Positions 2,138-30,162 of a stretch of DNA of 30,162 nucleotides are shown here, one piece after another. Origin of the DNA: Spirochaetales bacterium (GTDB taxonomy: Bacteria > Spirochaetota > Spirochaetia > Treponematales > UBA12059); NCBI GenBank assembly GCA_016926955.1, contig JAFGNN010000055.1, positions 1 to 30,162 on the forward strand, read 5' to 3'. The position numbers and the translations under genes are program-made. Position 1 is the first letter of the stretch, and each line of letters begins with the position of its first letter. The notes below the pieces were generated by a model. It did no database searches, had not been told where the DNA came from, and worked only from the letters and a program-made list of their open reading frames with translations.

Positions 2138-2139
2138 AC

Positions 2140-2829: not shown

Positions 2830-2832
2830 GCG

Positions 2833-4092: not shown

Positions 4093-4103
4093 GGGAGGAT
4101 AAG

Positions 4104-5339: not shown

Positions 5340-5352
5340 TCGACGATACCGA

Positions 5353-5474: not shown

Positions 5475-5493
5475 TATTCTTCAAGGAGTTCAT

Positions 5494-7367: not shown

Positions 7368-7448
7368 TCCGGCGCTGAAGGGCGGATGGCGCCGGCCTTG
7401 CCGCCACCCGCCTCGCGCCGGGCCGGGAAAGCGCGCTCTTCCCACCGC

Positions 7449-9021: not shown

Positions 9022-9139
9022 GCCGTTCATCCTCCGCCCATTGGTCGCCGCGGACGCGCCCCGGGTTCCCTCAAAAAGCGCATATCCCCCACGCATTGTA
9101 GCGCGACGGCGGCGCGTCTGGAAATTCACGGGCCACCTG

Positions 9140-9148
9140 TGCCATAAT
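9140..9148 (+). promoter_or_regulatory. Candidate extended -10 element (TGcCATAAT) for ileS. It is followed by a GC hairpin (9155-9178) in the ~45-nt leader.
   Basis: This was read directly and no clear -35 was found. No T-box consensus is present. Confidence 0.3.
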
Positions 9149-9200
9149 CGCCCGAAGCGCGCCCCGCCCGGGGCGCTGTCCCGCATCCGGAGGAAGCGCC

Positions 9201-12353: not shown

Positions 12354-12364
12354 GAAGCAGGAAT

Positions 12365-12475
12365 CCAACGCCGAGACGCCGAGAACACCGAGACAAGAAT
12401 GAAAAAGGGGAAGGGTCATGACGACCCTTCCTTTTTTCTTCGTCCCGATCTCGGCGTCTCGGCGTCTCGGCGTTT
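12365..12475. repeat. Extended ~110-nt palindrome. A 28-bp inverted repeat (AACGCCGAGACGCCGAGA... / ...TCTCGGCGTCTCGGCGTT, with the CCGAGAC unit iterated) flanks the ileS terminator hairpin.
   Basis: The left arm is 12365-12393 and the right arm 12448-12475. The first 18 nt of the arms are perfectly complementary. Confidence 0.55.
12403..12440 (+). terminator. Rho-independent terminator of ileS. An A-tract precedes a GGGGAAGGGTC/GACCCTTCC stem with a TTTTTTCTT tail, so it is potentially bidirectional.
   Basis: It has a perfect 9-10 bp GC-rich stem, a 5-nt loop and a U-tract. Confidence 0.8.
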
Positions 12476-12500
12476 TCTTCTATTCTTTAACTCGTTCGGC

Positions 12501-12537
12501 CGCCATGGCGGCGGCAATTTTCTCTATAGTCTCCGCG
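12501..12537. repeat. 36-37-nt direct duplicate of the 3' end of the DtxR-like gene (CCATGGCGGCGGCAATTTTCTCTAT[A/G]GTCTCCGCG). The second copy at 12722-12757 encodes ...AETIEKIAAAME. The intervening ~180 nt carries four perfect GC hairpins.
   Basis: Direct comparison shows a 35/36 match. Copy 2 is in frame as the regulator's C-terminus, whereas copy 1 contains a stop in that frame. Confidence 0.6.
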
Positions 12538-12706
12538 CGAAGGCCCTCCGGGCCTTCGACGGCGCCGAAGCCCGCGAGGGGCTTCGTCGTCCATGACGCA
12601 CCCGTCCGCGTCGCGGACGGGCCATCCCGTGGGCGCGCTTCCGTGCGCGCCTGCCTCGTCGGCGGGCGGCGATCCCACGGAACCTCTCCGCGGAGACCGA
12701 CGCCAC

Positions 12707-13090
12707 TCAGCGGCGCCTGGCCTCCATGGCGGCGGCAATTTTCTCTATGGTCTCCGCGGAGAGGTAGTGCTCGATGCGGCAGGCGTCGCGCTCGGCGGTC
12801 TCGGGGCTGACGCCCAGGAAGTCGCGGAGGAAGCGGGTGAGCAGCTCGTGGCGCCTGCGGATCTCGGCGGCGTGGTCGAGGCCCGCGGGGGTAAGGGCGA
12901 CGTCGCCATAGGGCTCATGCACCACGAGGCCGCGGCGCTCGAGCTCATGCAGGGCCGTGTGCACCGAGGGCTTGGACACCGAGAGAACTCGCGCGATGTC
13001 GGTCACCCGCCCCTTCGCGCCCCGCTCCCGGATCGAGTCTATGGCCTCCAGGTACATCTCGAGGCTTTCGGATAGCCGCTCGTCCGCCAC
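12707..13090 (-). CDS. DtxR/MntR-family metal-dependent transcriptional regulator (127 aa; no C-terminal SH3-like domain).
   Basis: LSESLEMYLEAIDSIRERGAKGRVTDIARVLSVSKPSVHTALHELERRGLVVHEPYGDVALTPAGLDHAAEIRRRHELLTRFL is a DtxR-type wHTH plus metal-binding/dimerisation helix. The GTG start at 13090 has GGGAGG 7 nt upstream. Only the 3' 384 nt of the 504-aa track ORF is real. Confidence 0.8.
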   Translation of the reverse strand: MADERLSESLEMYLEAIDSIRERGAKGRVTDIARVLSVSKPSVHTALHELERRGLVVHEPYGDVALTPAGLDHAAEIRRRHELLTRFLRDFLGVSPETAERDACRIEHYLSAETIEKIAAAMEARRR

Positions 13091-13229
13091 GTCGCAAACC
13101 TCCCGCGCGTCCTGCTCGACGCCCACTCTACACCGCGGGCTCCGGCGCGTGAAGCGGTCGCGCGGCCGCCTGAAGTGCTCGCCATGCCCTTGATGCGCGC
13201 GAAGAACGATTTGACAGGAAATATCATAT

Positions 13230-13239
13230 AGGTAAACCT
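13230..13239. promoter_or_regulatory. Candidate metalloregulator operator: the palindrome AGGTaaACCT, embedded in an AT-rich region between duplicated TTGACAG boxes (13211, 13248). The putative cstA promoter is TTGACA 13248-13253, 17 nt, TACGCT 13271-13276.
   Basis: This was read directly. It resembles DtxR-box half-sites (TAGGT...ACCTA). Confidence 0.3.
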
Positions 13240-13315
13240 GAAATTCCTTGACAGCTTCCGAGGACCCCCCTACGCTACTTTCCATAGCAACCCCCAAAGT
13301 CCCCAAGGAGGTCCC

Positions 13316-15001
13316 ATGTCTACGGTCATAGCACTGATCGCGTTGGGCATCTACGTGGTGTTCTACTTCACCTACGGCAAGAACATCCAGGTCAAGCTGC
13401 TCAAGAGCCGCGAGGCGCCCAAGGCGCCGAGCGAGCGGCTCTCCGACGGCGTCGACTACGTGCCGACTTCGAAGTACGTGCTCTTCGGTCACCACTTCGC
13501 CTCGATCGCCGGCGCGGGCCCCATCACGGGACCGGCCATCGCGGTCGCCTGGGGCTGGCTGCCGGGCCTCCTCTGGATCTGGTTCGGAAACATCTTCATC
13601 GGCGCCATCCACGACTACCTGTCGCTGGCCGCCTCGATCCGCTACGACGGGCGCTCGGTGCAGTTCGTGGCGCAGGACCTGATCGGCAAGAAGGCCGGAA
13701 AGACCTTCAGCTGGTTCATCCTCTTCCTCTGCGTCCTGGTCGTGGCCGCCTTCGGCGACATCGTCGCCGGGCAGTTCGCCACCGACGGCCGCGTCTTCTT
13801 CTCCTTCGTCTTCTTCTGCGTCGCGGCCGTCATCTCCGGCTACTTCATGTACAAGACGAAGCTCGGCCTCGGCTGGGGCTCGCTCCTCGGCCTCGCCCTC
13901 GTCATCCTGGCCTTCTGGGGCGGCGACATGCTGCCGCTCAAGATGTCGAAGGACATCTACTTCGCCATCATCTTCGTCTACATCATGCTCGCGTCCACCC
14001 TGCCGGTTAACCTGCTCCTGCAGCCGCGCGACTACCTCTCGTCCTTCTTCCTCTACTTCGGCCTGCTCGCGGGCGGCATCGCGGCCCTGATCAGCATGGC
14101 CCCGCTCGAGTCCGTGCCGATCTACACGAGCTTCAGCGCCAAGGTCATAGCCGGCGTGCCCTCGCCCTTCTGGCCCACCGTACCGCTCATCATCGCGTGC
14201 GGCGCGCTCTCGGGCTTCCACTCCCTGGTGGCCTCGGGCACGAGCTCGAAGCAGATCAAGACCGAAAGCGACGCGCTTTTCGTCGGCTACGGCGGCATGC
14301 TCGTCGAGGGTTTCCTCTCGACCCTCGTCATCATCTCGATCGCGGGATTCGGCATCGCGGCCTTCGGCTCCCCCGACAAGGTCATGGGCGCCGCGGCGCT
14401 CAACCGCTTCGTCCAGTCCTTCGCGGCCATGGTCAGCACGCAGATTCCCTTCCTCAGCATGAACTTCATGACGCTGTTCGCCGCGGTCTGGGTTTCCACC
14501 TTCGCGCTGACCACCCTCGACACCACGAACCGCCTCGGCCGCTACGTGGTCCAGGAGATGGCCCTGCCGCTCAAGGACTCCAAGCCCGGCCTCTACAAGG
14601 CATTCAGCAACAAGTGGATCGCCTCGTTCGTCATCGCCTTCCTCGGCATCGGCCTGGCCTGGACCGGCAACTACACGGTGCTCTGGCCCGCGTTCTCTGG
14701 CGCCAACCAGCTCCTGGCCTCCATCGTCATGCTCACCGTGGCGGCCTGGGTGACCAAGAAGCTCAACCCGAAGTACTCGGCCATGGTCATGATCCCCGCG
14801 GTGCTGCTCTGGATCACGGTGACCGCCGCCCTCATCTGGTACGAGGCCGCGGTCATCCCCACCTTCTTCCGCGACATGGCGCTCACCAAGAACGTGATCA
14901 CCGGAACGGTTGTCGGCGCCATCACCGCCTTCATGCTGATCCTGAACTTCATCATGATCGCGAGCTTCCTCAAGAACTACAAAACCAAGGTCGCGGCCTG
15001 A
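13316..15001 (+). CDS. cstA: CstA-family (carbon starvation protein A-like) peptide/pyruvate transporter, 561 aa.
   Basis: The N-terminal region VDYVPTSKYVLFGHHFASIAGAGPITGPAIAVAWGWLPGLLWIWFGNIFIGAIHDY matches the CstA signature (PT.K.VLFGHHFA.IAGAGP). The protein is polytopic, and RBS AAGGAGG is at 13303-13309. Confidence 0.85.
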   Translation: MSTVIALIALGIYVVFYFTYGKNIQVKLLKSREAPKAPSERLSDGVDYVPTSKYVLFGHHFASIAGAGPITGPAIAVAWGWLPGLLWIWFGNIFIGAIHDYLSLAASIRYDGRSVQFVAQDLIGKKAGKTFSWFILFLCVLVVAAFGDIVAGQFATDGRVFFSFVFFCVAAVISGYFMYKTKLGLGWGSLLGLALVILAFWGGDMLPLKMSKDIYFAIIFVYIMLASTLPVNLLLQPRDYLSSFFLYFGLLAGGIAALISMAPLESVPIYTSFSAKVIAGVPSPFWPTVPLIIACGALSGFHSLVASGTSSKQIKTESDALFVGYGGMLVEGFLSTLVIISIAGFGIAAFGSPDKVMGAAALNRFVQSFAAMVSTQIPFLSMNFMTLFAAVWVSTFALTTLDTTNRLGRYVVQEMALPLKDSKPGLYKAFSNKWIASFVIAFLGIGLAWTGNYTVLWPAFSGANQLLASIVMLTVAAWVTKKLNPKYSAMVMIPAVLLWITVTAALIWYEAAVIPTFFRDMALTKNVITGTVVGAITAFMLILNFIMIASFLKNYKTKVAA

Positions 15002-15054
15002 GCCACGGCACGCCGCGACCGCCTTCCCGGCCGGTCGCGGCGACTCATGAAGGG

Positions 15055-15084
15055 GGCTTCCCGCGGGGAAGCCCCTTTCTCATC
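15055..15084 (+). terminator. Probable intrinsic terminator after cstA: GGGGCTTCCC-gcg-GGGAAGCCCC followed by TTTCTCAT.
   Basis: It has a 10-bp perfect stem, though the U-tract is short and interrupted. A second hairpin (CGCGACCG/CGGTCGCG) sits at 15013-15038. Confidence 0.5.
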
Positions 15085-15104
15085 CAGGGACGGGGGAGGC
15101 TCGC

Positions 15105-15389
15105 TTGAAACCAGGTGGATTTTTCCGTTTCCTCGGCAGGTTCTGGTCGGTCGTGGCGCAGGTCCACAGGGAGAAGGCGACGGGCATGCTGGAGTTCGAG
15201 CTCCGCGAGCTCGAGAATGCCTTCGCGCTGCTCGTGCTCGGCGGCTTCGCGGGACTGCCCTCGCCACCCTCCCCGATCGCGATGGAGCTGCTTCCCTACC
15301 TCGAGCGGGAGCTGACCGTGATGATGTCCCGCAGCGATCTCGCGCAGGACCCCCTGGGCGTCCTCGCCGGCATGCTGGAAATCGACTGA
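15105..15389 (+). CDS. Small hypothetical protein (94 aa from TTG 15105, or 67 aa from ATG 15186), first gene of the ArsA-like cluster.
   Basis: There is strong GC3 codon bias throughout. GGAGAAGG lies ~11 nt before the ATG at 15186. No family was recognised, and the stop is 6 nt before the next gene. Confidence 0.5.
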   Translation: MKPGGFFRFLGRFWSVVAQVHREKATGMLEFELRELENAFALLVLGGFAGLPSPPSPIAMELLPYLERELTVMMSRSDLAQDPLGVLAGMLEID

Positions 15390-15395
15390 GCGCTT

Positions 15396-16328
15396 ATGGA
15401 AGGAAACAACGTGCGGAACATAGCATTCTTCCTCGGCAAGGGCGGGGTCGGCAAGACGACGCTCTCGGCGGCCTTCTCGCTCGAACTCGCGAAGCGCGGC
15501 AAACGCGTCCTCGTCGTCTCGCTCGATCCGGCCCACAACCTCGGCGACGCGCTCGGCATCCGGCTTGTCGACAGACCCGAGCCGGTCCTCGAACGGCTCT
15601 TCGCCATGGAGATCGACCTGACCGCCTGGGTCGAGCGCTACCTCGAGGAAAGCCGCTCGGAGCTCAAAGCCCTCTATGCCTACAACTCGAGCTTCAATCT
15701 CGATTCCTTCTTCGACATCATGCGCTACTCCCCGGGCACCGAGGAGTACGCGATGCTCTGGGCCATCGAAAACGTGTACTGCGAGCTCTCGGCCGGCTAC
15801 GACGTCGTGGTGTTCGACACGCCGCCCACGGCGCTCTCGCTCCGCTTCCTGGCCCTGCCAACCATCTCGGGTCTCTGGGTGAATGAACTCACCAAGCTGC
15901 GCGAGCACATCCTCAAGAAAAGGCAGGTGATATCCCGGCTCAACCCCGAATCGCCGGTGGCCGCGAGCTGCGTCGACAAGGACGACGACCGCGTCCACGG
16001 CAAGCTCTCGCTCATCTCGAAGCGGCTCGGCGTCCTGCACCGGCTATTTTCGGAGGAAAGCTTCATCTCCGTCATCGTCAACCCGGACGTCCTGTCCGTG
16101 TCGGAAGCCATGCGCATCAAGGACGAGCTCGACCGCATCGGCATCGGCCTCCACGCCGCCTGCCTCAACAAGCGCGGAGCCTCCACGGCCGCGTGGCGGA
16201 TCGACGACGGCCTCAAGGCGCTTCCCCTTTTCGAACTCGATTACAAGCCCGAGGGCATACGCTCTCCGGACGATCTTTCGCGCGTCGACGTTTCCGCCCT
16301 CGCGGCGGAGTTCCTCGGCGTCGAATAA
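15396..16328 (+). CDS. ArsA/GET3-family P-loop ATPase, single-domain (310 aa).
   Basis: It has the deviant Walker A FFLGKGGVGKTTLSAAF, the ArsA/Get3 signature SLDPAHNLGDALG (DPAHSL-like) and the DTPPTA switch motif. An alternative GTG start at 15411 has GGAAGGA upstream. Confidence 0.8.
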   Translation: MEGNNVRNIAFFLGKGGVGKTTLSAAFSLELAKRGKRVLVVSLDPAHNLGDALGIRLVDRPEPVLERLFAMEIDLTAWVERYLEESRSELKALYAYNSSFNLDSFFDIMRYSPGTEEYAMLWAIENVYCELSAGYDVVVFDTPPTALSLRFLALPTISGLWVNELTKLREHILKKRQVISRLNPESPVAASCVDKDDDRVHGKLSLISKRLGVLHRLFSEESFISVIVNPDVLSVSEAMRIKDELDRIGIGLHAACLNKRGASTAAWRIDDGLKALPLFELDYKPEGIRSPDDLSRVDVSALAAEFLGVE

Positions 16329-16331
16329 GGA

Positions 16332-16979
16332 ATGGCACCCATGAACCCCCTTTTCGTAGGCGGCATCGCCGCGCTCGGCATCGCCGCCACAGTGCAGTAT
16401 TTCCTCGGCGTCAAGAAGAACCGATGGATATCCTCCCGCATCTCATCCGCCGCCGAGAAGACCTTCGCTCCGAAGGACACGAACTACGTCAACATAGGCG
16501 GGGCCATCGGCCACAACTTCACCTACAAGCTCAAGGATCCGTGGACCGAAGCGAAAGGAGCGATAACTCTAAGCCCGCGGCAGTCCATGCTCTACCTGCC
16601 CTTCTCGCGCCTCATCGGCTTCGGCGACCGCTTCTTCGCCAATCTGTACACCAAGCGGAAGATGCTCGGCGAGATGCACCTGGTCGAGGCGGGCCATCTG
16701 AAACGCGCGAAAATCGACGGCATCGACGCCATGCAGCGTCGGAGCGTCGAGAGGGGCGGCAAGCGCTTTGTCATCCTCTGGAAGGGGAAGGATGACACGA
16801 AGGTCCTCGACGATGCCCTGGCCGAGCTGCCGGATCCGGCCGCCCTGCGGCACTTCTGCTGCTTCCCGGACAACCGCACGGTGTTCTTCTACCTGGTGCC
16901 GCGCAGGGGCGACCTGGACGAAACCCTGCCGGTGCTCGAGCGCCAGGCCCGCGCCTGCATCCGAGAAAAGGAGTCCTGA
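16332..16979 (+). CDS. Hypothetical protein with an N-terminal membrane anchor (215 aa).
   Basis: The N-terminal helix is MAPMNPLFVGGIAALGIAATVQYFLGV. It shows strong GC3 bias and a CCFPD motif. It starts 4 nt after the ArsA-like stop, with an alternative ATG at 16341. Confidence 0.55.
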   Translation: MAPMNPLFVGGIAALGIAATVQYFLGVKKNRWISSRISSAAEKTFAPKDTNYVNIGGAIGHNFTYKLKDPWTEAKGAITLSPRQSMLYLPFSRLIGFGDRFFANLYTKRKMLGEMHLVEAGHLKRAKIDGIDAMQRRSVERGGKRFVILWKGKDDTKVLDDALAELPDPAALRHFCCFPDNRTVFFYLVPRRGDLDETLPVLERQARACIREKES

Positions 16980-16980
16980 G

Positions 16981-17253
16981 ATGGCCGACGAAGTCCGCGC
17001 CAGTATCGACGCGGCCCTGGCCTCGGTCATCGAGCCGCAGACCCTGGTCTCGGTGCTCGACCTGGGCTTCGTGGCGGGGGTGAGCTACTCGGAGACCGGG
17101 CGCCGCGTCATTCTCAGGCTCGCGGTGGAGGACCGGCGCTTCGCGTGCCCGGCCTGCAGCCTGGTCGACAGCCTTGCGGTCGAGGACATGGCGCGCCGCG
17201 TCCGCGAGGCGGTCGGCGCCGCCCTGCCCGGCTGGACCGTCGAGACGACCTGA
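16981..17253 (+). CDS. DUF59/MIP18-like (Fe-S cluster assembly-associated) small protein, 90 aa.
   Basis: VRASIDAALASVIEPQTLVSVLDLGFVAGVSYSETGRRVILRLAV resembles the DUF59 fold signature (V.DPE.G...V.LG.V). The ATG at 16981 is 2 nt after the upstream stop. Confidence 0.55.
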   Translation: MADEVRASIDAALASVIEPQTLVSVLDLGFVAGVSYSETGRRVILRLAVEDRRFACPACSLVDSLAVEDMARRVREAVGAALPGWTVETT

Positions 17254-17432
17254 AGGCGCTTCCCGTCCGGCCACGGAGGCCCGGGTACTCGGCCCGAATC
17301 AGAGGGCAAATCGTCCTTGTCTCTCCTTTTCCGCCCGGGGCGGTACACATTCGCCACCATCGGTGCTACCATGGGACGGCGGGAGGATACCGCGAGGCGT
17401 CCGCCCGAAATAAAACCGTACGGAGGACGCCG

Positions 17433-18461
17433 ATGAAACGCTTTAGCGTGCCGGCCCTGACGCTGCTCGCCCTATTCCTGGCGCTCGGTTGCGCGTCGAA
17501 ACCGCCCGCAACACCCGAGCCGGAGCCGGAACCCGCGATCGATATCGCCTCGCTCCGCGCCGAGACCGAGGCCCTGAAACAGGAAGCCTTCGAGCTCGGC
17601 CTCGGGGACACCGACGAGTACCGCGCCGCGAACGAGCTCTACGTGGCCGGCGTGAGCGCCCAGGACTCTGCCGACATCCCTGCCGCCGCGGCCAAGTACG
17701 AAGCCGCCCGGGACGCTTTCCGCGCCGCCATCGATTCAGGGCTCGCCCTGAAGGAGAAGTCGGCCAAGGCCAAGGCGCTGGCCGCCCGAGACGCGGCGGA
17801 GTCCGCCGGCGGCGACCTGGTCGCCCCCGACCGCATGGCCGCCGGAGCCGCCGCCTTCGCCGCCGCCGAGACGCTCTCGGCCGCCGGCAAGGCCGATGAG
17901 GCCGCCGCTTCCTACGAAGCCGCCCGCCTCGCCTGGTACAACGCCGAGACCAAGGCCAAGGCCCTGGCGGTCAAGGATCGCATCGACGAATACGACTGGT
18001 CTTCATACGACGCGGGCAACTACGGTCTCGCCGGCGAAAAGCTGGCGGCCGGCGACGCGCTCTTCCCCGGCGATCCGGACGGCTCCGTCGACGCCGTCGA
18101 GGAAGCGCTGCTCCGCTACAACCTGGTCCTCGACAAGGGCTTCGAGTACCAGGCGGGCGAACGTCGCGCGGTCTCCGAAAAGGAACGGCTGGCCGCCATG
18201 GACGTCAAGGCCGACGTGGCCGTGAAGGCCGGCTTCGACGACGCTCAGTCCGTCTACGACCGGGCGGTAGCCGCCTTCTCCGAGGGCGAATACGAGGAAG
18301 CCGCGAGGCTCTTCGAGGAATCCGAACGCCAGTTCAAGGCCGCCTGGGAGGAGGCCCTCGCCAAGCGCGAGGCCGCACTCGCCGCCATGGCCGATATGCA
18401 GGCCGCCCGCGAGGCCAGCGCCGAGTACGCCGCCGAAGCCGACGCGGCCGCCGGGAACTAA
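17433..18461 (+). CDS. Ala/Glu-rich helical lipoprotein (342 aa) with internal ~35-40 aa repeats.
   Basis: It has a signal plus lipobox MKRFSVPALTLLALFLALGCAS. The motif [DE]-Y-x(2)-A-x(3)-[YFW]-x(2)-A recurs. GGAGGA is at 17423-17428. Confidence 0.7.
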   Translation: MKRFSVPALTLLALFLALGCASKPPATPEPEPEPAIDIASLRAETEALKQEAFELGLGDTDEYRAANELYVAGVSAQDSADIPAAAAKYEAARDAFRAAIDSGLALKEKSAKAKALAARDAAESAGGDLVAPDRMAAGAAAFAAAETLSAAGKADEAAASYEAARLAWYNAETKAKALAVKDRIDEYDWSSYDAGNYGLAGEKLAAGDALFPGDPDGSVDAVEEALLRYNLVLDKGFEYQAGERRAVSEKERLAAMDVKADVAVKAGFDDAQSVYDRAVAAFSEGEYEEAARLFEESERQFKAAWEEALAKREAALAAMADMQAAREASAEYAAEADAAAGN

Positions 18462-18473
18462 GGAGGCAACGAC

Positions 18474-19166
18474 ATGAGGAAACCAGCCATAGCCGTCGCC
18501 GTCCTTCTTCTGGCCGCGGCAGCGCTCTTCGCGCAGGATTTTTCCGACAACGAATACCTGGTCAAGGCCCGCGAGTATGAATCCCTGGCCCGCCAGTCGT
18601 TCGACGAGGGCGATTACGACGCCGCCGCGGACTACGCGGCCCAGTCCAAGGAATTCTCGAGGCTTTCCGACGAGTATGTCGCCCGCATGCTCGCCCGTTC
18701 GGAAGCCTCGACCCGCATGGGCGCGCTCGAGACCCGCATCGCCGAGGTGGAAGGCTTCGCCAACGCCGAGGACCTGTTCGCGAACCTCGACGCCGCGCGC
18801 GCCAGCCTCGATTCGGCGGCCGCGAGCTTCGAGGCTGAGGATTACGTCGACGCCGCGGATTTTGCGGAAAGCGGCCTCATCGCGCTGGAAGGCCTTACCG
18901 AGTCGGGCGTCATGCCCGCGAGCTACGTGGTGCGCCTGCTGCTGCCGACCCGCGAGTGCCTCTGGCGCATCGCGGCCTACCCGTGGGTTTACAACGACAA
19001 GTCAAAGTGGCCCCTGCTCTGGGAGGCCAACCGCGACACCTTCGAACAGCCGGACAATCCGCACCTGATCGAACCCGGCCAGGTGCTGGTCATCCCGAGC
19101 CTCGCGGGCGAACTCCGCTCGGGCGCATGGGATCCCGAGGGCGAATACCCGGCCTTCGGCGAGTAG
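18474..19166 (+). CDS. Secreted LysM-domain protein (230 aa) with N-terminal repeats related to the upstream lipoprotein.
   Basis: It has the signal MRKPAIAVAVLLLAAAALFAQ. The C-terminal LysM-like segment is YVVRLLLPTRECLWRIAAYPWVYNDKSKWPLLWEANRDTFEQPDNPHLIEPGQVLVIP. RBS AAGGAGG lies upstream. Confidence 0.75.
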   Translation: MRKPAIAVAVLLLAAAALFAQDFSDNEYLVKAREYESLARQSFDEGDYDAAADYAAQSKEFSRLSDEYVARMLARSEASTRMGALETRIAEVEGFANAEDLFANLDAARASLDSAAASFEAEDYVDAADFAESGLIALEGLTESGVMPASYVVRLLLPTRECLWRIAAYPWVYNDKSKWPLLWEANRDTFEQPDNPHLIEPGQVLVIPSLAGELRSGAWDPEGEYPAFGE

Positions 19167-19199
19167 GACGACGGCTTCCGCCCGGACGGGCGGAAGCAT

Positions 19200-19236
19200 A
19201 AAAAAAGGGAAGGCCACGCGGCCTTCCCTTTTTTTG
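19200..19236. terminator. Bidirectional rho-independent terminator (AAAAAAAGGGAAGGCC-acgc-GGCCTTCCCTTTTTTT) shared by the convergent LysM and aminopeptidase genes.
   Basis: It has a perfect 9-bp stem, a 4-nt loop, and an A-tract and T-tract on either side. Confidence 0.85.
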
Positions 19237-24289: not shown

Positions 24290-24363
24290 GTGTCGCTCCA
24301 ATCTAGCAGAAGCCCCCGAAGGTGTCAAACCGCCGCCCGGCCTGCCCCACCCCATGAAAAGGC

Positions 24364-24539
24364 GAACCACGGAGGCACGGCAGAGCCTTCCCAATGAGAA
24401 CCACGGAGGCACGGAGCTGGGGAGAAAAGAGGGAGCAAGAAAAGGTCGAGGTAAAAGGTGGGAAGGTCGACTCCTTCCCCACAACTTTCCTCCCTCCTCC
24501 CTCCTCTCTCTTCCCTCTTCCCTCCGTGCCTCCGTGGTC
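24364..24539. repeat. Second member of the GAACCACGGAGGCACGGAG-terminated palindromic element family. Terminal 19-mers sit at 24398-24416 and inverted at 24522-24539, with an extra direct partial copy at 24364-24380. It has a central GGAAGGTCGAC/TCCTTCC and a 38-nt pure polypyrimidine tract (24488-24525). It lies in the ptsI upstream region.
   Basis: This was read directly. The arms are purine-rich and pyrimidine-rich as in the element at 5353-5474. Confidence 0.65.
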
Positions 24540-24547
24540 TTCTTTGA

Positions 24548-25000
24548 CTAGTTGTCCCTTGCGATGTCGGTGGCGTAGAGCTCTTCGAAGCGGGCGCGGT
24601 GGCGCGACTCCTCGGCGGCGAGCCGCTCGAAGACCTCCGCGAGCTCGCCCGAACCCGCGGCCTCCGCGAAGGCCTTGTAGAGGCGCTCCGAGCGGTCCTC
24701 CTTGCGGATGCCCGCGCGGAGCACGTCCTGGTAGTCCGGATCCGGGCCGAGCTCCCTGTCCTCGACCAGATCGGAGAAATCGGCGCGGGATGCGAAGGCG
24801 GCGTTCCAGGTCGGCGCGCCTTTGACCTTGACCGCCTCGAGGGCGCGCGCGTGGCCCTCCTCCATGGCGGCGAGCTCGGCGAGCATGCCCTGCTGCGCGG
24901 CGAAATCCGAACGGCCGAGCAGGTCCTGGTAGAAGCGGATGGCCTCGCGCTCGCGGCCTATGGCTAAGTCGATCGCCTCGGAGAAGCTCCGGAAATCCAT
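24548..25000 (-). CDS. Rubrerythrin-like/ferritin-like diiron four-helix-bundle protein (150 aa), last gene of the complex-I-like operon.
   Basis: It has two E-x-x-H motifs (AAMEEGHARALE; AAEESRHRARFEEL) plus upstream Glu residues. Its ATG at 25000 is 2 nt after the fusion gene's stop. Confidence 0.65.
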   Translation of the reverse strand: MDFRSFSEAIDLAIGREREAIRFYQDLLGRSDFAAQQGMLAELAAMEEGHARALEAVKVKGAPTWNAAFASRADFSDLVEDRELGPDPDYQDVLRAGIRKEDRSERLYKAFAEAAGSGELAEVFERLAAEESRHRARFEELYATDIARDN

Positions 25001-25002
25001 GC

Positions 25003-26781
25003 TCACGCTCCCTTGCGCAACGCGCGGTCGATGGCCAGGGCGGCCCGGTGGCCGTCCGCGATGGCGCTGATGGCGTCCTTCTTTTCGTTGACGAGGTCGC
25101 CGCCGGCCCACACCTTCGGGTCGCCCGTGCGGCCCGTCGCGTCGACCACCGGCTTGTAGCGCTTGATCTCGAGGCCGTCCGCGGCGTCGGCGCCGATGAA
25201 CGAAAGGTCCGGTCCCTGGCCGATGGCCGCCACGATGGTGTCGTAGCGGACCTCGCGCACGGTCTCGCCCATGAGTTCCGGGAGCGGGCGCTTGCCCGGC
25301 CCCTGGTCGACCATGCGGGCCTGGCCCCACGACACGAGCGCCGAGCCGTCCGGACCGAGCTTGACGCCCGTCGGGATGGCCTGCACGACGATGGCAACGC
25401 CCTCGGCCTTCGACTCCACGATCTCCTCGGGGTCGGCGGGCATGTCGACCTCGCGGCGCCGGTAGAGGATGTCCACCTCGGCGCCGAGGCGCCGCGCGGT
25501 GCGGGCGCAGTCCATGGCGACGTTGCCGCCGCCGACCACCGCCACCTTCTTCCCCAGTTTCGGATCCTCGCCGCGGGTGACCTGGGCCAGCACCTCGACG
25601 CCGTCGCGAACGCAGGGCAGGTCGTCGCCGCTCACGTCTAGCTTGTACGCCGCGGGCAGGCCCGTGGAGACGTAGACCGCGTCATGCTCGCGCTTCAGCT
25701 TCGCGTAGTCGAAATCCTTGCCCACGGCGACGGAAGTCTCGACCTTGACGCCGAGGCTTTCGATGTAGCCTATGTCCTTGTCGAGCGCCTCGTAGGGCAG
25801 GCGGTACTCGGGGATGCCGTAGCAGAGCATGCCCCCGGCCTTGGGCGCGGCTTCGAGCACGCTCACCTCGTGGCCGGCCATGGCCAGGTAGTAGGCCGCG
25901 GCCAGGCCGCCGGGGCCCGCGCCGACGACGGCCACCTTCTTTCCTGAAGGCGCGTCCTTGCGCGGCAGTTCCTTGGCGTAATCGGAGAGCTCCACCTGGT
26001 CGGCGATATAGCGCTTGAGCCAACGGATGGCCAGCGGATCGCCCCGGACGCCGATGGAGCAGGCTTCCTCGCAGACGTGGGTGCAGACGCGGCCGCAGGC
26101 CTCGGGGAAGGGGTTGGTCTCGTAGAGGAGGCGCAATCCCTCGTCGATGTTCCCCTCGCGCACGGCCCGGATGTAGCCGGGAATGTCCATGTGCGCGGGG
26201 CAGGAGGCGACGCAGAGGCCGCATTCGACGCAGCGGTCGGCTTCCTTCTCCGCGAGCTCGCGCGAGTAGCCCTTCACGAGCTCGCGGAAGCTCGCGACGC
26301 CCTCGGCGTGCGGGAGCTCGGGCATCTCCACCCGCTCCCTGTCGAGGATGGAGTAGCCCTCGGCGCGCTTGTAGCCGAGCTCGGCCGAGTCCCAGGGTTT
26401 TTTTTCGACGCCGGGCACGAAGCGGAAGTCCTCGGGGTCGGACGAGATCCAGACGTACTCGTTGCTCATGGTGAGCGAGCCCGAGGGGCAGATGTCGACG
26501 CAGAGCGCGCACCAGCAGCAGCGGCCGTAGTCGATGCGGGGCCGGAGCCCCGAGTCGCCCGCGGACGGCGAGCGGCCCGCGACCTCCACGAGGTCGATGG
26601 CGCCGTTCTGGCAGATGGCCTCGCAGCTGCCGCAGCCGACGCAAGTCTCCGCGTCGTTCTTGTGGAAGCCGCGGTAGCGCGGGGCGCCGGGGCGCTCGTC
26701 GATGGGCTTCTTCACGGTGAAGGGCTTTTCGAACGCGCGCTTCCAGACCGCGAACGGGGCGATGAAATCCTTGACGTCCAT
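25003..26781 (-). CDS. Fusion protein (592 aa). An N-terminal NuoI/EchF-like 2x[4Fe-4S] ferredoxin domain is joined to a complete GltD/NfnB/SudA-type FAD/NAD(P)H oxidoreductase.
   Basis: The N-terminus has CVGCGSCEAICQ and CCWCALCVDICPSG. The C-terminal part has the GltD N-terminal cluster motifs CVECGLCVASCPAHMDIPGYI and CGRVCTHVCEEAC, an FAD site GKKVAVVGAGPGGLAAAYYLAMAGHEV and a NAD(P)H site GKKVAVVGGGNVAMDCARTARRLGAEV. Confidence 0.8.
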   Translation of the reverse strand: MDVKDFIAPFAVWKRAFEKPFTVKKPIDERPGAPRYRGFHKNDAETCVGCGSCEAICQNGAIDLVEVAGRSPSAGDSGLRPRIDYGRCCWCALCVDICPSGSLTMSNEYVWISSDPEDFRFVPGVEKKPWDSAELGYKRAEGYSILDRERVEMPELPHAEGVASFRELVKGYSRELAEKEADRCVECGLCVASCPAHMDIPGYIRAVREGNIDEGLRLLYETNPFPEACGRVCTHVCEEACSIGVRGDPLAIRWLKRYIADQVELSDYAKELPRKDAPSGKKVAVVGAGPGGLAAAYYLAMAGHEVSVLEAAPKAGGMLCYGIPEYRLPYEALDKDIGYIESLGVKVETSVAVGKDFDYAKLKREHDAVYVSTGLPAAYKLDVSGDDLPCVRDGVEVLAQVTRGEDPKLGKKVAVVGGGNVAMDCARTARRLGAEVDILYRRREVDMPADPEEIVESKAEGVAIVVQAIPTGVKLGPDGSALVSWGQARMVDQGPGKRPLPELMGETVREVRYDTIVAAIGQGPDLSFIGADAADGLEIKRYKPVVDATGRTGDPKVWAGGDLVNEKKDAISAIADGHRAALAIDRALRKGA

Positions 26782-26787
26782 ATCGCG

Positions 26788-27957
26788 CTACCTCTCGATC
26801 TCGGGCGGATAGGTGTGGAGGCTGACCATGAGGCCGGCCAGGTCGGCGAGGTTCTGGCCCTTGGCCAGGGTCTCCATGACCGACACCGCGTGCGTGTAGC
26901 TCGGGCCGCGCACGACGACGCGGCGCGGCTTGTCGGAGCCGTCGGACACCACGTAGAAGCCGTACTCGCCGCGCGTGCACTCGCTCTTCACGTAGGTCTC
27001 GCCCGCGGGGATCTTCCAGTGGAGCGGGTTCGGCAGGGCCGCCTTGAACTCGCCGCCTTTCGGCATGCGCGCGAGCATCTGGCGGATCAGGTCGATGGCC
27101 TGGTACATCTCGCCGAGGCGGACCAGGGCGCGGTCGTAGGCGTCGGAGCCCTCGGCCGTGACGTAGTCGAAATCGAGCTTGTCGTACACGAGGTAGGGCT
27201 GGTCCTTGCGGATGTCGCGGCGGAAGCCGGCGGCGCGGGCGTTCGGGCCCGTGATGCCGAAGCGGTCGATCCAGTCCTTCGGGATGACGCCGAGCCCCTT
27301 CGCGCGCAGCTTGAACACCGCGTTGTGGAACATGACGAGCTCGATGTCGTCGAGGTTCTTCTCGATGGTGTCCATGACCTCGAGGGCATGGGCCGCCCAA
27401 CCCTCGGGCAGGTCGGAGCGCACGCCGCCGGGGATGATGTACATGTGGTAGATGCGTCCGCCCGAGAGCTCCTCGAAGAGGTCGAGGACGTAGTCGCGCA
27501 TGGTGGCCGACCACTGGATGATGGTGCCGTGCCCGAAGGCGCCGGCCTGGCCGCCGATCCACATGAGGTAGCTGGCGAGCCGGATCATCTCGAGCGTCAG
27601 GTTGCGGAGCCACTTGGCCTTCTCCGGCACCTCGACGCCCGCGAGCTCCTCGATGGCCGCGGCGTAGCAGTACTCGTTGAAGTCCGGCTCGGGCACCGCG
27701 ATGCGGCAGACGAGGGGGAAGTTCTGCATCCAGAGCCGGCGCTCCATGAGCTTCTCGAAGCCGCGGTGCAGGTAGCCCACGTGGGTCTTGCAGTCGTAGA
27801 CGGTGTCGCCCGCGATGGCCAGCTCGAGCGACATGTTGCCCGTGATGCCGGGGTGCTGGGGCCCCTGCCACATCTTGAGGAACTTGCCGGAGGCGAAGTC
27901 CACCGGCTCCTTCGGGTCGTAGGGGGGCGGGAAGAATCCCTTGACGCCTTCGAACAT
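26788..27957 (-). CDS. NuoD/EchE-like large subunit (389 aa) lacking all [NiFe] cysteine ligands, i.e. Ehr/complex-I-like and not a hydrogenase.
   Basis: WQGPQHPGITGNMSLEL...DTVYDCKTHVGYLHRGFEKLME aligns with the NuoD GPQHPAAHGVLRL...IGYHHRGAEK. The N-terminal RxCGxC and C-terminal DPCxxC are absent, and the C-terminus ...SLHTYPPEIER has no Cys. The ATG at 27957 overlaps the nuoC-like stop (ATGA). Confidence 0.85.
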   Translation of the reverse strand: MFEGVKGFFPPPYDPKEPVDFASGKFLKMWQGPQHPGITGNMSLELAIAGDTVYDCKTHVGYLHRGFEKLMERRLWMQNFPLVCRIAVPEPDFNEYCYAAAIEELAGVEVPEKAKWLRNLTLEMIRLASYLMWIGGQAGAFGHGTIIQWSATMRDYVLDLFEELSGGRIYHMYIIPGGVRSDLPEGWAAHALEVMDTIEKNLDDIELVMFHNAVFKLRAKGLGVIPKDWIDRFGITGPNARAAGFRRDIRKDQPYLVYDKLDFDYVTAEGSDAYDRALVRLGEMYQAIDLIRQMLARMPKGGEFKAALPNPLHWKIPAGETYVKSECTRGEYGFYVVSDGSDKPRRVVVRGPSYTHAVSVMETLAKGQNLADLAGLMVSLHTYPPEIER

Positions 27958-28487
27958 CAGAGGGCCTCCGGGTAGAGTTTCTCTTTCATGTGGGTCGCGG
28001 GGTCCTTGGTGGAACGGCCCGGGCGGGTCGGGAAGGTCCGCTCGCTGTATTCCCTCGTGTCGAACTCGCGGCGCATCGGCGGAATGTCGATCCAGCCTTC
28101 GAGCACGAAGCTTTCGTCGACCCGCGGGCTGCCCGGGAAGTCGATGCCGAAGAGCTCCTTCAGTTCGCGCTGGTAGGTCCACATCTGCTCCCAGAGCAGG
28201 TGGCAGGACTCCATGGCCGCGTTCTCGCGCCCGATGCGGCACTTGACCGCCAGCGAGTGGTTTTCCGCGTGGTTGTGCAGCATGTAGGTGAGGACGAAGA
28301 CGCCCTCCTCGATCAGGTCGGTCGCCGTGACGAAGGAAAGGTGGGCATAGCCGTGGCGGTCGCGGAGGCGCGCGAGCAGCTCCGGCACGTCCTTCGCGTC
28401 CGCCTCGAGCGTCGCCAGGTCGGCGCGTTTTTCCACGAGGGGGCCGACCTCGAAGCGCTCGGCGATATCGTTCGCTATGGTTCGCAT
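27957..28487 (-). CDS. NuoC/EchD-like 30-kDa-type subunit (176 aa).
   Basis: RHGYAHLSFVTATDLIEEGVFVLTYMLHNHAE matches the NuoC core. The ATG is at 28487, and the first 90 aa of the track ORF are artefact. Confidence 0.75.
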   Translation of the reverse strand: MRTIANDIAERFEVGPLVEKRADLATLEADAKDVPELLARLRDRHGYAHLSFVTATDLIEEGVFVLTYMLHNHAENHSLAVKCRIGRENAAMESCHLLWEQMWTYQRELKELFGIDFPGSPRVDESFVLEGWIDIPPMRREFDTREYSERTFPTRPGRSTKDPATHMKEKLYPEAL

Positions 28488-28498: not shown

Positions 28499-29191
28499 CT
28501 AGTAGTTGTAGTCCGGCATGTTCCAGTCGTGGATGACCTTCTTCTGGTTCGCCTTGTACCATTCGAAGTTCTCCGCGTACTTGACCGCGCCTTCGCATTC
28601 TCCGCGGCGGATCTTCCGCTGGAGCTCCTTGAAGCCGGCCAGCAGCGCCTCGGGGCGCGGCATGCAGCCGGCGATGTACACGTCCACCGGGATGTAGTGC
28701 TCGATGGCGTTGATGGTGTTGTAGCTGTCCCAGTACATGCCGCCGTTGATGGTGCACGAGCCCAGGGCCACCACGAACTTCGGCCCCATCATCTGCTCGT
28801 AGGAGCGGACGATGCGCTTCAGGGTCTTGACCGAGGCGTAGCCGCCGATGACGAAGACCGAGGACTGGCGGGGCGTGGGACGGCCCTGGATGCCGTAGCG
28901 GTACATGTCGAAACGGCTCGTCATGAGGGGGCGGAGCTCGATGGCGCCGCAGCCCGTGCCGAAGCCGAGTATCCAGAGGCTCTTCGAGCGGGCCCAGTTG
29001 AGGAAGTTCTCGAGTATGCCCTTGTAGGGGCCGGAAGCTGTCGGGTAGGCGTCGCAGAACCAGGGCTTCTCCTCTTCGGGCAGGCCGTCGTTCGCGAGGA
29101 CCATGGGCTTGCCGAGGGGACCCGGCCTTCCGGCCGGCTTCAGCGCGTGGTCGGGATCGGCCGGGGGGCGCGTGAATTTCATGTCGCTCAT
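28499..29191 (-). CDS. NuoB/EchC-like small subunit (230 aa) with an N-terminal ~60-aa extension. Only three of the four canonical cluster-N2 cysteines are present.
   Basis: It has GFGTGCGAIE (the canonical CC is GC here), GSCTINGG and IAGCMPRPE. AGGAG lies 7 nt upstream of the ATG at 29191. Confidence 0.8.
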   Translation of the reverse strand: MSDMKFTRPPADPDHALKPAGRPGPLGKPMVLANDGLPEEEKPWFCDAYPTASGPYKGILENFLNWARSKSLWILGFGTGCGAIELRPLMTSRFDMYRYGIQGRPTPRQSSVFVIGGYASVKTLKRIVRSYEQMMGPKFVVALGSCTINGGMYWDSYNTINAIEHYIPVDVYIAGCMPRPEALLAGFKELQRKIRRGECEGAVKYAENFEWYKANQKKVIHDWNMPDYNY

Positions 29192-29201: not shown

Positions 29202-30116
29202 CTAGAAAGCCGTGTACAGCACCGCGCCGATGCCGATCAGGGTCGGCACGCCGAGGAAGAAGCGGATGGCCTGGTCGGTGCGGAAGCGCGGGAAGGCCTG
29301 CCCGACGAAGATGTTGACGAAGTAGATGAGGAAGGTCTTCGCCACCATCACGGGCACGTTGGTCGCGCCGCCGAAGAACAGGTTCATGTAGAGGACCAGC
29401 TTGGCGCCGTTGAAGACGGCCCGGTTGGTCTGCAGCATGCCGAGCAGGTTCGACTGGTACTCGGTGGGCGGGCCGATCGGGATCTCCTGCGGCGCGATGA
29501 CGACGCTGAAGGGGTTGTGTCCCGACATGCCGAGGAAGGCGATCATGGCCGCCACCACCGCGAGCGGGTTGGTGAACAGGGTCCAGTTCATGAAGCCGCC
29601 CTGCTGCGCCATGACGATCTTCGTGATGTCGAGCGTGCCGTACTGCACCGCGATGGAGATGATGGAGAGGGCGAAGGGCACCTCGAAGGCCGTCATCTGC
29701 GCCAGTCCCCGGCTGACGCCGAGGGCGCTGTACGGGTGGCCGCCCTCGGAGGCGCCGAGCGCCATGCCGAGCTGGCCGAAGAAGATGAAGTACATCACGA
29801 GGAGGAGGTCGCCCGACATCGAGAAGTTCCGGAACACCACCGAGCCGAGGACGGCCGGCACGAACATGTAGGTGCCGACGCCGCCCGCAAGCCGGAAGAC
29901 CGGCCCGAGCCAGAACATGATGCCGTGCGAGATCGAGTTGCGCTTGCCCGACGACTTGACGATGTCGATGATGGGCTGCCACACGGGCTGGCCCACGCGT
30001 CCCTGCACCTTCGCGCTGATCCGGGCCATGCTCCCGATCAGGAGCAGGCCGTACACCGTGATGACGGCGAGCGACACGAAGGCGTACGCGATGCGGAGGG
30101 GAATGCTCGGTTCCAT
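29202..30116 (-). CDS. NuoH/EchB/HycD-like polytopic membrane subunit (304 aa).
   Basis: ARISAKVQGRVGQPVWQPIIDIVKSSGKRNS matches the NuoH-family loop (Q.R.GP...QP..D..K...KE). There are multiple TM helices. Its ATG overlaps the upstream gene's TGA by 1 nt. Confidence 0.8.
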   Translation of the reverse strand: MEPSIPLRIAYAFVSLAVITVYGLLLIGSMARISAKVQGRVGQPVWQPIIDIVKSSGKRNSISHGIMFWLGPVFRLAGGVGTYMFVPAVLGSVVFRNFSMSGDLLLVMYFIFFGQLGMALGASEGGHPYSALGVSRGLAQMTAFEVPFALSIISIAVQYGTLDITKIVMAQQGGFMNWTLFTNPLAVVAAMIAFLGMSGHNPFSVVIAPQEIPIGPPTEYQSNLLGMLQTNRAVFNGAKLVLYMNLFFGGATNVPVMVAKTFLIYFVNIFVGQAFPRFRTDQAIRFFLGVPTLIGIGAVLYTAF

Positions 30117-30162
30117 CAGCGGACCCCCAGGAAGAGATAGAGTATGCCGACGTAGAGCACCA
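30116..30162 (-). CDS. 3' end of a hydrophobic upstream gene (...VLYVGILYLFLGVR*), presumably a NuoL/EchA-like antiporter-type membrane subunit. Its 5' end is truncated by the window.
   Basis: The frame was derived by hand. The stop overlaps the nuoH-like ATG (TGATG). Only 15 codons are visible, so the family assignment is positional (Ech gene order). Confidence 0.35.
   Translation of the reverse strand, partial: VLYVGILYLFLGVR

Follow-up and report, generated by a model that had tools for sequence, protein, structure and literature searches.

The window analysed here is a stretch of 30,162 nucleotides (nt) from a Spirochaetales bacterium (assembly GCA_016926955.1, contig JAFGNN010000055.1, positions 1 to 30,162 of the forward strand). 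The gene in question is one minus-strand open reading frame (ORF), the strand not being given in the first-pass annotation, which encodes, in a single polypeptide, an iron-sulphur domain of the MbxN/NuoI kind and a flavoprotein module of the NfnB/GltD kind. This ORF comprises 1779 nt, read from position 26781 down to 25003, with an ATG start, 592 codons and one TGA at the end; the plus-strand translation of the same interval is packed with stops. The ATG is located 6 nt past the stop of the preceding NuoD-like gene, and a Shine-Dalgarno-like motif (GAGAGG) is found 9 nt 5' of it. The GC content at third codon positions (GC3) separates the reading frames of the window, being about 0.9 in real genes and 0.4-0.7 in spurious ones; in the fusion ORF it is 0.94 overall and 0.86-1.00 in each block of 50 codons, the junction included, with no dip. 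That the product is an MbxN/MbsN subunit joined to an NfnB/GltD-type flavoprotein is considered highly probable.

All of the 120 best database matches to the fusion protein have between 588 and 697 amino acids (aa), with 99-100% coverage and 56-97% identity. In a survey of one genome per GTDB species, at least 587 genomes hold a relative of the fusion, distributed among Spirochaetota, Cloacimonadota, Gammaproteobacteria (Chromatiales, Ectothiorhodospiraceae, Methylococcales and Thiosymbion), Bacteroidota, Chlorobiota and Neomarinimicrobiota; the best 80 loci, which were retrieved, are colinear with the fusion over nearly its full length. Carriers from WOR-3 and Thermotogota were added by a search of representative sequences. 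The closest genome among the matches listed is a 'Spirochaetes bacterium' metagenome-assembled genome (MAG), here L005, whose fusion is 96% identical. No exact copy of the protein was found by look-up; a 97%-identical protein (P0001) and other homologues served for the comparison of loci. The protein of an isolate, Thermosipho melanesiensis (ABR31076.1), can be aligned end to end, with 44% identity over 592 aa. The NCBIfam model NF010590 (PRK13984, 'putative oxidoreductase') covers residues 3-590 in one stretch (profile 8-608 of 611, E 1.7e-203).

A two-gene form of the same system is found in locus L086 (5743-7622), where a gene for a 176-aa MbxN-like protein is followed 26 nt on by a gene for a 440-aa flavoprotein, the pair occupying the same operon slot after NuoH-B-C-D homologues. 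The small protein is 43% identical to residues 7-166 of the fusion, whereas the large one, whose first residue corresponds to M153, matches the fusion as far as residue 589 with 48% identity; the break maps to about residue 153. Six proteins of 165-176 aa, obtained from independent sources, make up the cluster of the small protein. Such a split form at the same position constitutes Rosetta-stone evidence that both parts work together. The comparison of fused and split genes proposed in the first-pass annotation, which had been made from the letters alone, has therefore a clear outcome: hundreds of fused orthologues plus a natural split form.

The N-terminal domain contains two cysteine motifs of the form CxxCxxCxxxCP, with NuoI-type spacing and with cysteines invariant in 54 homologues, within a Fer4 dicluster recognised by Pfam at residues 43-105. 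When residues 1-161 alone were searched against all PDB sequences, the best match was MbsN (6U8Y_N; E 1.2e-22, residues 5-114 against 19-122), a subunit of the membrane-bound sulfane reductase (MBS) of Pyrococcus furiosus, nine orders of magnitude ahead of polyferredoxins. Mycobacterial NuoI (7e-14), the TYKY/NuoI chains of complex I (about 1e-11) and MbhN (1.6e-10) follow. The likeness extends ahead of the first cysteine motif, since residues 5-46 can be aligned both with MbsN (19-60) and with mycobacterial NuoI (6-50); in this family of subunits the segment is the one in contact with the membrane anchor. This segment of some 40 residues, which is not found in generic ferredoxin domains, has R37, G38, F39 and H40 invariant and R35 and Y36 conserved in at least 90% of the 54 homologues. 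The NuoI and FpoI models of NCBIfam match residues 4-121. After the cluster motifs there is a conserved tail (MSNEY.W...D...FR...G...K.W...GY), and M105, N107, Y109, W111, D115, G124, W130, G136, Y137, M153, F165 and E167 are invariant in the same homologues; such conservation speaks for a fixed link between the domains and against a floppy one.

Two side observations concern this domain. Cys89 (26515-26517) is an extra cysteine next to the ligand Cys88, in the motif G-R-C-C-W-C, invariant in 54/54 close fused homologues and kept in the split form of L086. The motif reads G-R-C-T-F-C in P. furiosus MbsN and G-R-C-S-F-C in the fused Thermosipho protein, so that neither has the extra cysteine. 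Besides, two relatives of the N-terminal domain, P0129 (737 aa) and P0132 (764 aa), with 49% identity over residues 1-127, exceed the usual length of the fusion by about 150 aa.

The C-terminal module is recognised by Pfam as Fer4_20 (164-263, E 2.9e-29) followed by Pyr_redox_2 (281-577, E 1.8e-33). Its best PDB match (residues about 147-590) is the 'NfnA' chain of NfnABC from T. sibiricus (9N5U_A, 5e-87), and next come the large subunit of P. furiosus NfnI (5JCA_L, 3.5e-84), Xfn (8e-77) and NfnB from T. maritima (4YLF_B, 3e-74); GltD (1e-54) and DPD (4e-33) are more distant. All 16 cluster cysteines of the fusion, together with the FAD and NAD(P)H motifs, are invariant in the 54 homologues. 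The position of the YRRR motif binds the 2'-phosphate in NADPH-dependent relatives, and YRRS or YRRT is aligned with it in the NfnABC chains; the motif hints at NADPH as the nucleotide. An AlphaFold2 model based on the 54 homologues (pLDDT 82.5) has a pTM of 0.75, which suggests a defined overall arrangement only. In a Foldseek search with the whole model, the C-terminal 470 residues or so were superposed on 5JCA_L (E 4.7e-44, TM 0.84 normalised to the target). As only these residues were aligned, the search is uninformative on the N-terminal domain, which is covered by the sequence search.

These results bear out the view of the first-pass annotation that one ORF unites a NuoI-type half and a GltD/NfnB-like half, on the evidence of the domain searches and of the conserved position of the locus. 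Its limits (1-210 and 215-592) have to be changed. The two NuoI-spaced motifs do lie in the N-terminal half, but the boundary is close to residue 150, because the third cysteine motif and CPAHMDIPGYI (184-204) belong to the flavoprotein and because the second gene of the split form starts at the M153 equivalent. In the same way, the complete GltD architecture ascribed to residues 215-592 is present as regards both cysteine clusters and the FAD and NAD(P)H motifs, although the module starts at about residue 153 and is nearer to NfnB than to GltD. A match of the N-terminal domain to the ferredoxin domain at the N-terminus of SudA or DPD had been named as the observation that would speak against the proposal. 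The domain matches MbsN and NuoI instead, in an alignment that takes in the 40 or so residues before the first cysteine, and the SudA/DPD-type domain is the separate Fer4_20 at 164-263.

The fusion is the last of a series of genes homologous to subunits of complex I (Table 1), whose order in the window, H-B-C-D-I, is the Mbh/Mbx order M-J-K-L-N; the stop of the antiporter-like gene overlaps the start of the NuoH-like gene (TGATG). NuoH-B-C-D homologues precede the fusion in virtually all of the 85 related loci with enough upstream sequence; in L035 a gap of about 1 kb lies between NuoD and the fusion. Neither a second NuoI gene nor a NuoE, F, G, A or J homologue was found in the operons inspected. 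Farther upstream, the colinear locus L005 (96-97% identical) carries MnhE, MrpF, MnhG, MbhD, MbhE/MnhB, a NuoK-like gene and a double antiporter-like gene of 1038 aa (3550-6666, Proton_antipo_M), and the same set is present in L003, L004 (Oceanispirochaeta) and Thermosipho (L085). The arrangement of the antiporter-like genes is variable: MbxH and MbxH' are united in a single gene (about 1038 aa) in the L005 lineage, two genes (450 and 614 aa) in Thermosipho, and one 862-aa gene plus a 146-aa ORF in Oceanispirochaeta.

The NuoB-like protein is closer to MbsJ (3.7e-64) than to its counterparts in complex I (about 1e-39) and in the membrane-bound hydrogenase MBH (7e-22), and the NuoD-like protein is closer to MbsL (1.1e-94) than to complex I (about 1e-68) or MbhL (4e-44). 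In the NuoB-like protein, C81, C146 and C176 align with C28, C93 and C123 of MbsJ and are invariant in 68/68 operons. The position of the non-ligating MbsJ-C25 is Gly in 67/68 sequences, so that the motif reads G-T-G-C-G and the tandem Cys-Cys of complex I is missing. In MBS, the three-cysteine proximal cluster, with one open iron, is the catalytic site of sulfane reduction (PMC7684303). The NuoD-like protein has none of the four NiFe-ligating cysteines and neither an RxCxxC nor a DPCxxC motif, and Ala and Tyr occupy the positions of MbsL C85 and C385. Judged by its sequences, the complex is of the bacterial Mbx/MBS type, neither a Nuo complex I nor a hydrogenase, since its NuoB- and NuoD-like subunits are closest to MbsJ and MbsL, the three-cysteine cluster is kept, the NiFe cysteines are lacking and the gene order is that of Mbh/Mbx. 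The first-pass proposal of a flavoprotein in place of NuoEFG agrees with the position of the fusion in the nuoI/mbxN slot of an operon devoid of NuoEFG, but the type of complex is Mbx/MBS and not Nuo. As an observation apart, the first 58 or so residues of the NuoB-like protein (29017-29191) are an extension which is present in neither MbsJ nor Thermosipho and which carries a conserved F-C-(D/N)-x-x-P. Its Cys46 was considered as a fourth cluster ligand and rejected, the position being Cys in 57/68 sequences and Ser in 10/68, and absent in Thermosipho and MbsJ.

On the other side of the fusion, 2 nt after its stop, starts a gene for a rubrerythrin-like protein. Among solved structures it is closest to the ferritin-like TM1526, and its diiron ligands (E17, E47, H50, E101, E131 and H134) are invariant in 33/33 orthologues. 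A gene of this kind occupies the slot after the fusion in 32/66 loci, from Spirochaetota, Gammaproteobacteria, Bacteroidota, Neomarinimicrobiota and Thermotogota, and its product may serve for protection, as a peroxidase, or may exchange electrons with the flavin as a redox partner. In the remaining loci the slot holds nfnAB (8 loci), a gene for a CBS-pair protein (5), a dihydroorotate-dehydrogenase-like (DHOD-like) gene (2) or nothing recognisable. The nfnA-nfnB pair stands right after the fusion in eight spirochaete loci (L013, L024, L036, L044, L050, L062, L065 and L069), often with overlapping stop and start, at about 11.8-14.5 kb in most of them and at 4.5-6.8 kb in L065. NfnA matches 5JCA_S with E 2.4e-91, and these loci lack the rubrerythrin-like gene. 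This adjacency suggests that the genes of a bifurcating transhydrogenase are transcribed together with those of the Mbx-like complex. A membrane-tethered NfnAB made of the NfnA-like ORF and the fusion was rejected as the simplest reading, because a standalone NfnB follows each NfnA; the adjacency is kept as a hint of functional linkage. The DHOD-like protein, an FMN barrel of 326 aa, is encoded in two Bacteroidota loci (L081 11814-12794 and L084 11809-12789), and the CBS-pair protein of 147-153 aa in L020, L031 and L068 (about 11.8-12.2 kb), L043 (2.0-2.4 kb) and L053 (2.6-3.1 kb).

Table 1. Features of the window, given for the fusion gene, its operon and the other genes (residue numbers are those of the protein concerned).
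Feature	Position	Strand	Basis
Fusion ORF, MbxN/NuoI-like domain and NfnB/GltD-like flavoprotein, 592 aa	25003..26781 (stop included)	-	ORF, Pfam, NCBIfam
Residues 1-150, NuoI/MbsN-type 2x[4Fe-4S] domain and conserved tail	26332..26781	-	PDB sequence search, NCBIfam, alignment
C47-x2-C50-x2-C53-x3-C57, cluster motif 1, NuoI-type	26611..26643	-	invariant in 54/54 homologues
C88(C89)-x-C91-x2-C94-x3-C98-P, cluster motif 2, NuoI-type	26488..26520	-	aligned with MbsN C96/C99/C102/C106
Residues 153-592, NfnB/GltD-type module: Fer4_20 2x[4Fe-4S], FAD and NAD(P)H domains	25003..26325	-	PDB sequence search, Foldseek, split homologue
C184-x2-C187-x2-C190-x3-C194, then PAHMDIPGYI, cluster motif 1 of the module	26200..26232	-	motif, alignment
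C229-x3-C233-x3-C237(E238)-x3-C241, cluster motif 2 of the module	26059..26097	-	all invariant
FAD dinucleotide-binding motif G287-A-G-P-G-G292	25906..25923	-	motif
NAD(P)H Rossmann motif G417GGNVAMD (417-424) and invariant Y440-R-R-R443	25453..25533	-	motif, alignment
Antiporter-like gene (MbxH/H'-type, NuoL-like), 3' end, last 47 nt, cut at the window edge	30116..30162	-	colinear with L005
NuoH/MbsM-like membrane anchor, 304 aa	29202..30116	-	Pfam, NCBIfam, related loci
NuoB/MbsJ-like, 230 aa, three-cysteine proximal cluster site C81, C146, C176	28499..29191	-	6U8Y_J, E 3.7e-64
NuoC/MbsK-like, 176 aa	27957..28487	-	Pfam, NCBIfam, related loci
NuoD/MbsL-like, 389 aa, without NiFe-binding cysteines	26788..27957	-	6U8Y_L, E 1.1e-94
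Rubrerythrin-like diiron four-helix bundle, 150 aa, no rubredoxin domain	24548..25000	-	PF02915, 1.9e-14
SPFH/Band-7 protein	962-2137	+	
Two MacB/FtsX-type permeases	2833-4092, 3969-5339	+	
ECF sigma factor	7853-8476	-	
Metal_resist-domain protein	8476-9186	-	
Isoleucyl-tRNA-synthetase-like class I synthetase	9201-12353	+	
DtxR-type repressor domain	within 12707-14221	-	
CstA	13316-15001	+	
ArsA-like ATPase	15396-16328	+	
Three high-GC3 ORFs, no Pfam match	16332-16979, 17145-18461, 18474-19166	+	

Beyond the rubrerythrin-like gene there are unrelated housekeeping genes (PtsI, Der and an M18 aminopeptidase), and the genes of positions 1-19200 are ordinary housekeeping ones as well. The window has 65-77% GC, and many long spurious ORFs lie over real genes, in different frames and on the opposite strand, for example 9020-12421 (+). 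Three ORFs that overlap the operon, namely 25682-27871 (-), 26077-27975 (+) and 24303-25397 (-), the last of which has no Pfam match, were rejected as genes and taken for high-GC artefacts.

The explanation that best accounts for the whole is that the protein is the MbxN-flavoprotein fusion of a Mrp-linked complex of the Mbx/MBS type, its two parts being permanently joined; taken together with the working of the complex set out below, we would give it an even chance of being correct. The fusion would form a fixed wire in which electrons pass, in either sense, between NAD(P)(H), FAD, the two [4Fe-4S] clusters of the flavoprotein, the two [4Fe-4S] clusters of the MbxN domain and the proximal [4Fe-4S] cluster of the NuoB/MbsJ-like subunit, that is, through FAD plus five [4Fe-4S] clusters. 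NADPH would be the built-in donor, with the flavoprotein in the role that NuoEFG has in complex I or free ferredoxin in MBS. A non-quinone acceptor would be reduced at the proximal cluster as in P. furiosus MBS, sulfane sulfur or polysulfide being the default guess by homology, and this reduction would drive ion translocation through the Mrp-like arm. The small redox span between NADPH and sulfur makes reversibility plausible, and the enzyme may run in reverse, for instance in sulfur-oxidising Gammaproteobacteria.

Several lines of reasoning lead to this proposal. The strict selection of the ligands of the proximal cluster implies that electrons must reach it, and it is placed at the only coupling site known in the superfamily. 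NADPH is favoured as donor because, by analogy with complex I, a module sitting on the NuoI-like subunit is an input module, because the invariant YRRR stands at the 2'-phosphate position, and because nfnAB, whose product is NADPH, follows the operon in eight spirochaete loci. In fermenters, NfnAB makes NADPH from NADH and reduced ferredoxin. A further hint at this direction is that at least one spirochaete genus bearing the operon has been reported without quinones: Salinispira pacifica lacks quinone biosynthesis (PMC4511686), and a Salinispira MAG (L062) carries the operon. Taken with NADPH as the donor, the full mechanism is proposed tentatively, at slightly less than an even chance.

A number of points weigh against this proposal. 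By standard potentials, NADPH and polysulfide are only about 50-100 mV apart, a marginal driving force for pumping ions. Sulfur reduction is not known from many of the carriers, among them Cloacimonadota and sulfur-oxidising Gammaproteobacteria, so that these may use another acceptor or may have an enzyme that works backwards. The Mrp-like upstream genes are beyond the edge of the window and are seen in relatives only. The scores against curated models are low: the fusion reaches 677 bits with NF010590, whose equivalog cut-off is 946 bits, and the N-terminal domain reaches 93 bits of 243 with NF004543, 76 of 113 with TIGR01971 and 69 of 180 with FpoI. As the NuoI and FpoI scores fall short of their cut-offs, the N-terminal domain is, on its sequence, a divergent MbsN-like branch and is not named NuoI proper; in the same sense the fusion has the architecture and the operon of the Thermotogae members of NF010590, but is outside the narrow equivalog. 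No purification, activity or structure of any bacterial member of the family was found in the literature searched; as regards sulfur, what is reported is that S0 and thiosulfate induce mbxA in T. maritima (PMC9431562). Finally, the opposite direction, from ferredoxin to NAD(P)+, is the published assumption for the Thermotogae complex (PMC4758237).

This opposite direction is the first alternative to be considered: an ion-translocating, Rnf-like ferredoxin:NAD(P)+ oxidoreductase, in which the MbxN clusters would receive electrons from reduced ferredoxin and the flavoprotein would pass them on to NAD(P)+. It is the way in which Mbx of Thermotogae is usually drawn, and in a Mesotoga preprint Mbx is labelled 'NADP:ferredoxin oxidoreductase complex (Schut 2013)'. 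Most of the carriers are fermenters in need of ferredoxin re-oxidation, the span from ferredoxin to NAD(P)+ exceeds that from NADPH to sulfur, and NfnB-type modules are reversible. However, the idea goes back to the way in which archaeal Mbx was seen before 2018, and that enzyme has since proved to be a sulfane reductase (PMC7684303). Electrons following this route would not pass the proximal cluster of the NuoB-like subunit and the NuoB/D/H chamber, which is the only coupling site known in the superfamily, and the three invariant ligands of the cluster would be left without a role. Moreover, the fused module probably sits on the face of MbxN where ferredoxin would dock, and many carriers encode Rnf too. 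On balance this direction is judged rather unlikely.

A second alternative, which we regard as improbable, is a branched or bifurcating variant in which the NfnB-type FAD would have a second outlet to the rubrerythrin-like diiron protein, so that the oxidation of NAD(P)H would feed two paths, one to a cytoplasmic acceptor of high potential and one, a chain of low potential, into the membrane complex. The nearness of the C-terminal module to the bifurcating NfnB/NfnI-L, NfnABC and StnC proteins, rather than to GltD, is in keeping with it, as are the translational coupling of a diiron protein with invariant ligands in almost half of the loci and in five phyla, and the variable occupation of the slot directly downstream. 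Nevertheless, a standalone NfnB accompanies the NfnA-like genes found in this slot, which may do without the fusion as a partner. In about half of the loci no such partner is encoded, and the rubrerythrin may simply protect an oxygen-sensitive enzyme. A physical interaction of the fusion with the partner would have to be assumed. Nor does the window itself favour the label of a bifurcating Nfn: directly downstream of the fusion there is no small partner of the NfnA/SudB type, the next gene being the rubrerythrin-like one. It is conceivable, though we consider it a long shot, that the system represents a class of complex-I-like ion pump in which a bifurcation-capable NfnB-type flavin is hard-wired to an MBS-type three-cysteine cluster, with the diiron protein as second outlet. 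If this were true, part of the electrons of NADPH would go to a cytoplasmic acceptor of high potential and part to a membrane-coupled chain of low potential; in sulfur-oxidising Gammaproteobacteria the enzyme could instead work in reverse, as an ion-gradient-driven sulfide/polysulfide:NAD(P)+ reductase.

It could also be argued that the N-terminal dicluster is a generic ferredoxin domain of the kind present in AegA/YgfT, SudA or DPD, and that the protein is a soluble oxidoreductase merely encoded beside nuo-like genes. The AegA and YgfT models of NCBIfam do align from about residue 44, covering the N-terminal cysteine motifs, generic Fer4 families of Pfam match residues 43-105, and every NuoI-model score is under its curated cut-off. 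Against this, the 43 residues before the first cysteine, with R-Y-R-G-F-H among them, align with MbsN and NuoI, and MbsN leads the polyferredoxins among solved proteins by the nine orders of magnitude given above. The gene is in the nuoI/mbxN slot at every related locus with upstream sequence (L035, with its gap of about 1 kb after NuoD, set aside), with no alternative NuoI gene, and the split form retains a small protein of NuoI size after NuoD. Tested in this way, the generic reading is not supported by the sequences and appears very improbable. Lastly, a frameshift, mis-assembly or chimera merging two genes, conceivable a priori in a high-GC, metagenome-derived sequence where long spurious ORFs are common, is refuted by the comparative data and retains hardly any probability, given the even GC3 across the junction, the full-length matches in 120/120 cases, the relatives in at least 587 species genomes (isolates included) and the invariant residues of the tail; the first-pass annotation, too, had held an artefact to be unlikely, and the steady GC3 and the hundreds of colinear orthologues agree with it.

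As far as can be judged from the sequences, the fusion indicates that the complex-I superfamily can gain an input module for pyridine nucleotides other than NuoEFG, in this case an FAD protein of the NfnB/GltD type. Genome-based metabolic models give the family no label other than "FAD-dependent oxidoreductase" or "glutamate synthase small chain", and the donor, the acceptor and the direction of the reaction bear on the estimates of redox balance and energy yield for many anaerobic fermenters and syntrophs.

Among known proteins, AegA and YgfT from E. coli share with the fusion an N-terminal 4Fe-4S dicluster followed by a GltD-like module, and their NCBIfam models align with residues 44-588. 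Their dicluster, however, is of the generic polyferredoxin type, without the NuoI/MbsN N-terminal segment and without a nuo/mbx operon, and the score is 249 against a cut-off of 1003. GltD, SudA and the N-terminal half of DPD have the same succession of Fer4_20, FAD and NADPH domains, which forms a wire from NAD(P)H to iron-sulphur clusters; nevertheless, GltD and DPD are matched with E of 1e-54 and 4e-33, as against 1e-84 to 1e-87 for the NfnB-type proteins, and there is no GltB, FMN or pyrimidine domain partner here. The nearest relatives of residues 147-590 or so are NfnB and the large subunit of NfnI (5JCA_L, 4YLF_B) and the modules of NfnABC and StnABC (9N5U_A, 9BOV_A, 8OH5_C), which have a similar fold (TM 0.84) and are 35-40% identical to it; the CPAH motif, the two cluster motifs and the sites for FAD and NADPH are shared. 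Unlike NfnB, the fusion has no adjoining NfnA-type gene in the window, and its [4Fe-4S] pair presumably feeds the attached NuoI-type clusters, so bifurcation is not implied.

With complex I the system shares the NuoI-family domain at the same operon position and, as a functional analogy, the entry of electrons from a flavoprotein into the chain from NuoI to NuoB. It differs in having an FAD module of the NfnB type instead of the FMN-containing NuoF/E/G, a membrane arm of the Mrp/Mbh type, no tandem Cys-Cys in NuoB and no evidence of a quinone site, and its similarity to complex I is much lower than that to MBS. MbsN (6U8Y_N) has the same eight cluster cysteines, and its partners MbsJ, MbsL and MbsM are the best matches of the neighbouring genes. 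However, MbsN is free-standing (208 aa) and fed by ferredoxin, whereas here the C-terminus runs into a 440-aa flavoprotein; besides, the vestigial cysteines of MBS (MbsJ C25 and MbsL C85/C385) are absent.

The likeness is most complete with the mbx-like oxidoreductase of Thermotogae (NF010590; Thermosipho ABR31076.1), which has the two-module architecture end to end and an operon, in Thermosipho, with the order MnhE-MrpF-MnhG-MbhD-MbhE-NuoK-NuoL-like-NuoH-B-C-D-fusion-ferritin/rubrerythrin-like. The differences are that L005, the nearest relative, has a single gene (about 1038 aa) for the antiporter-like subunits and Thermosipho has two, and that the host here belongs to a lineage of mesophile-type, high-GC spirochaete MAGs. 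A gltD-like flavoprotein was described by Degli Esposti (2015) at the NuoI position of mbx-like operons, an operon that 'often terminates with rubrerythrin' (PMC4758237). The architecture is therefore already known (PRK13984, PMC4758237), although biochemically uncharacterised, and the copy in the window is an ordinary orthologue, 96-97% identical to proteins from public MAGs. To the published description the present comparison adds one clarification at the level of sequence: the NuoI domain is not replaced by the flavoprotein, but retained and fused to it.

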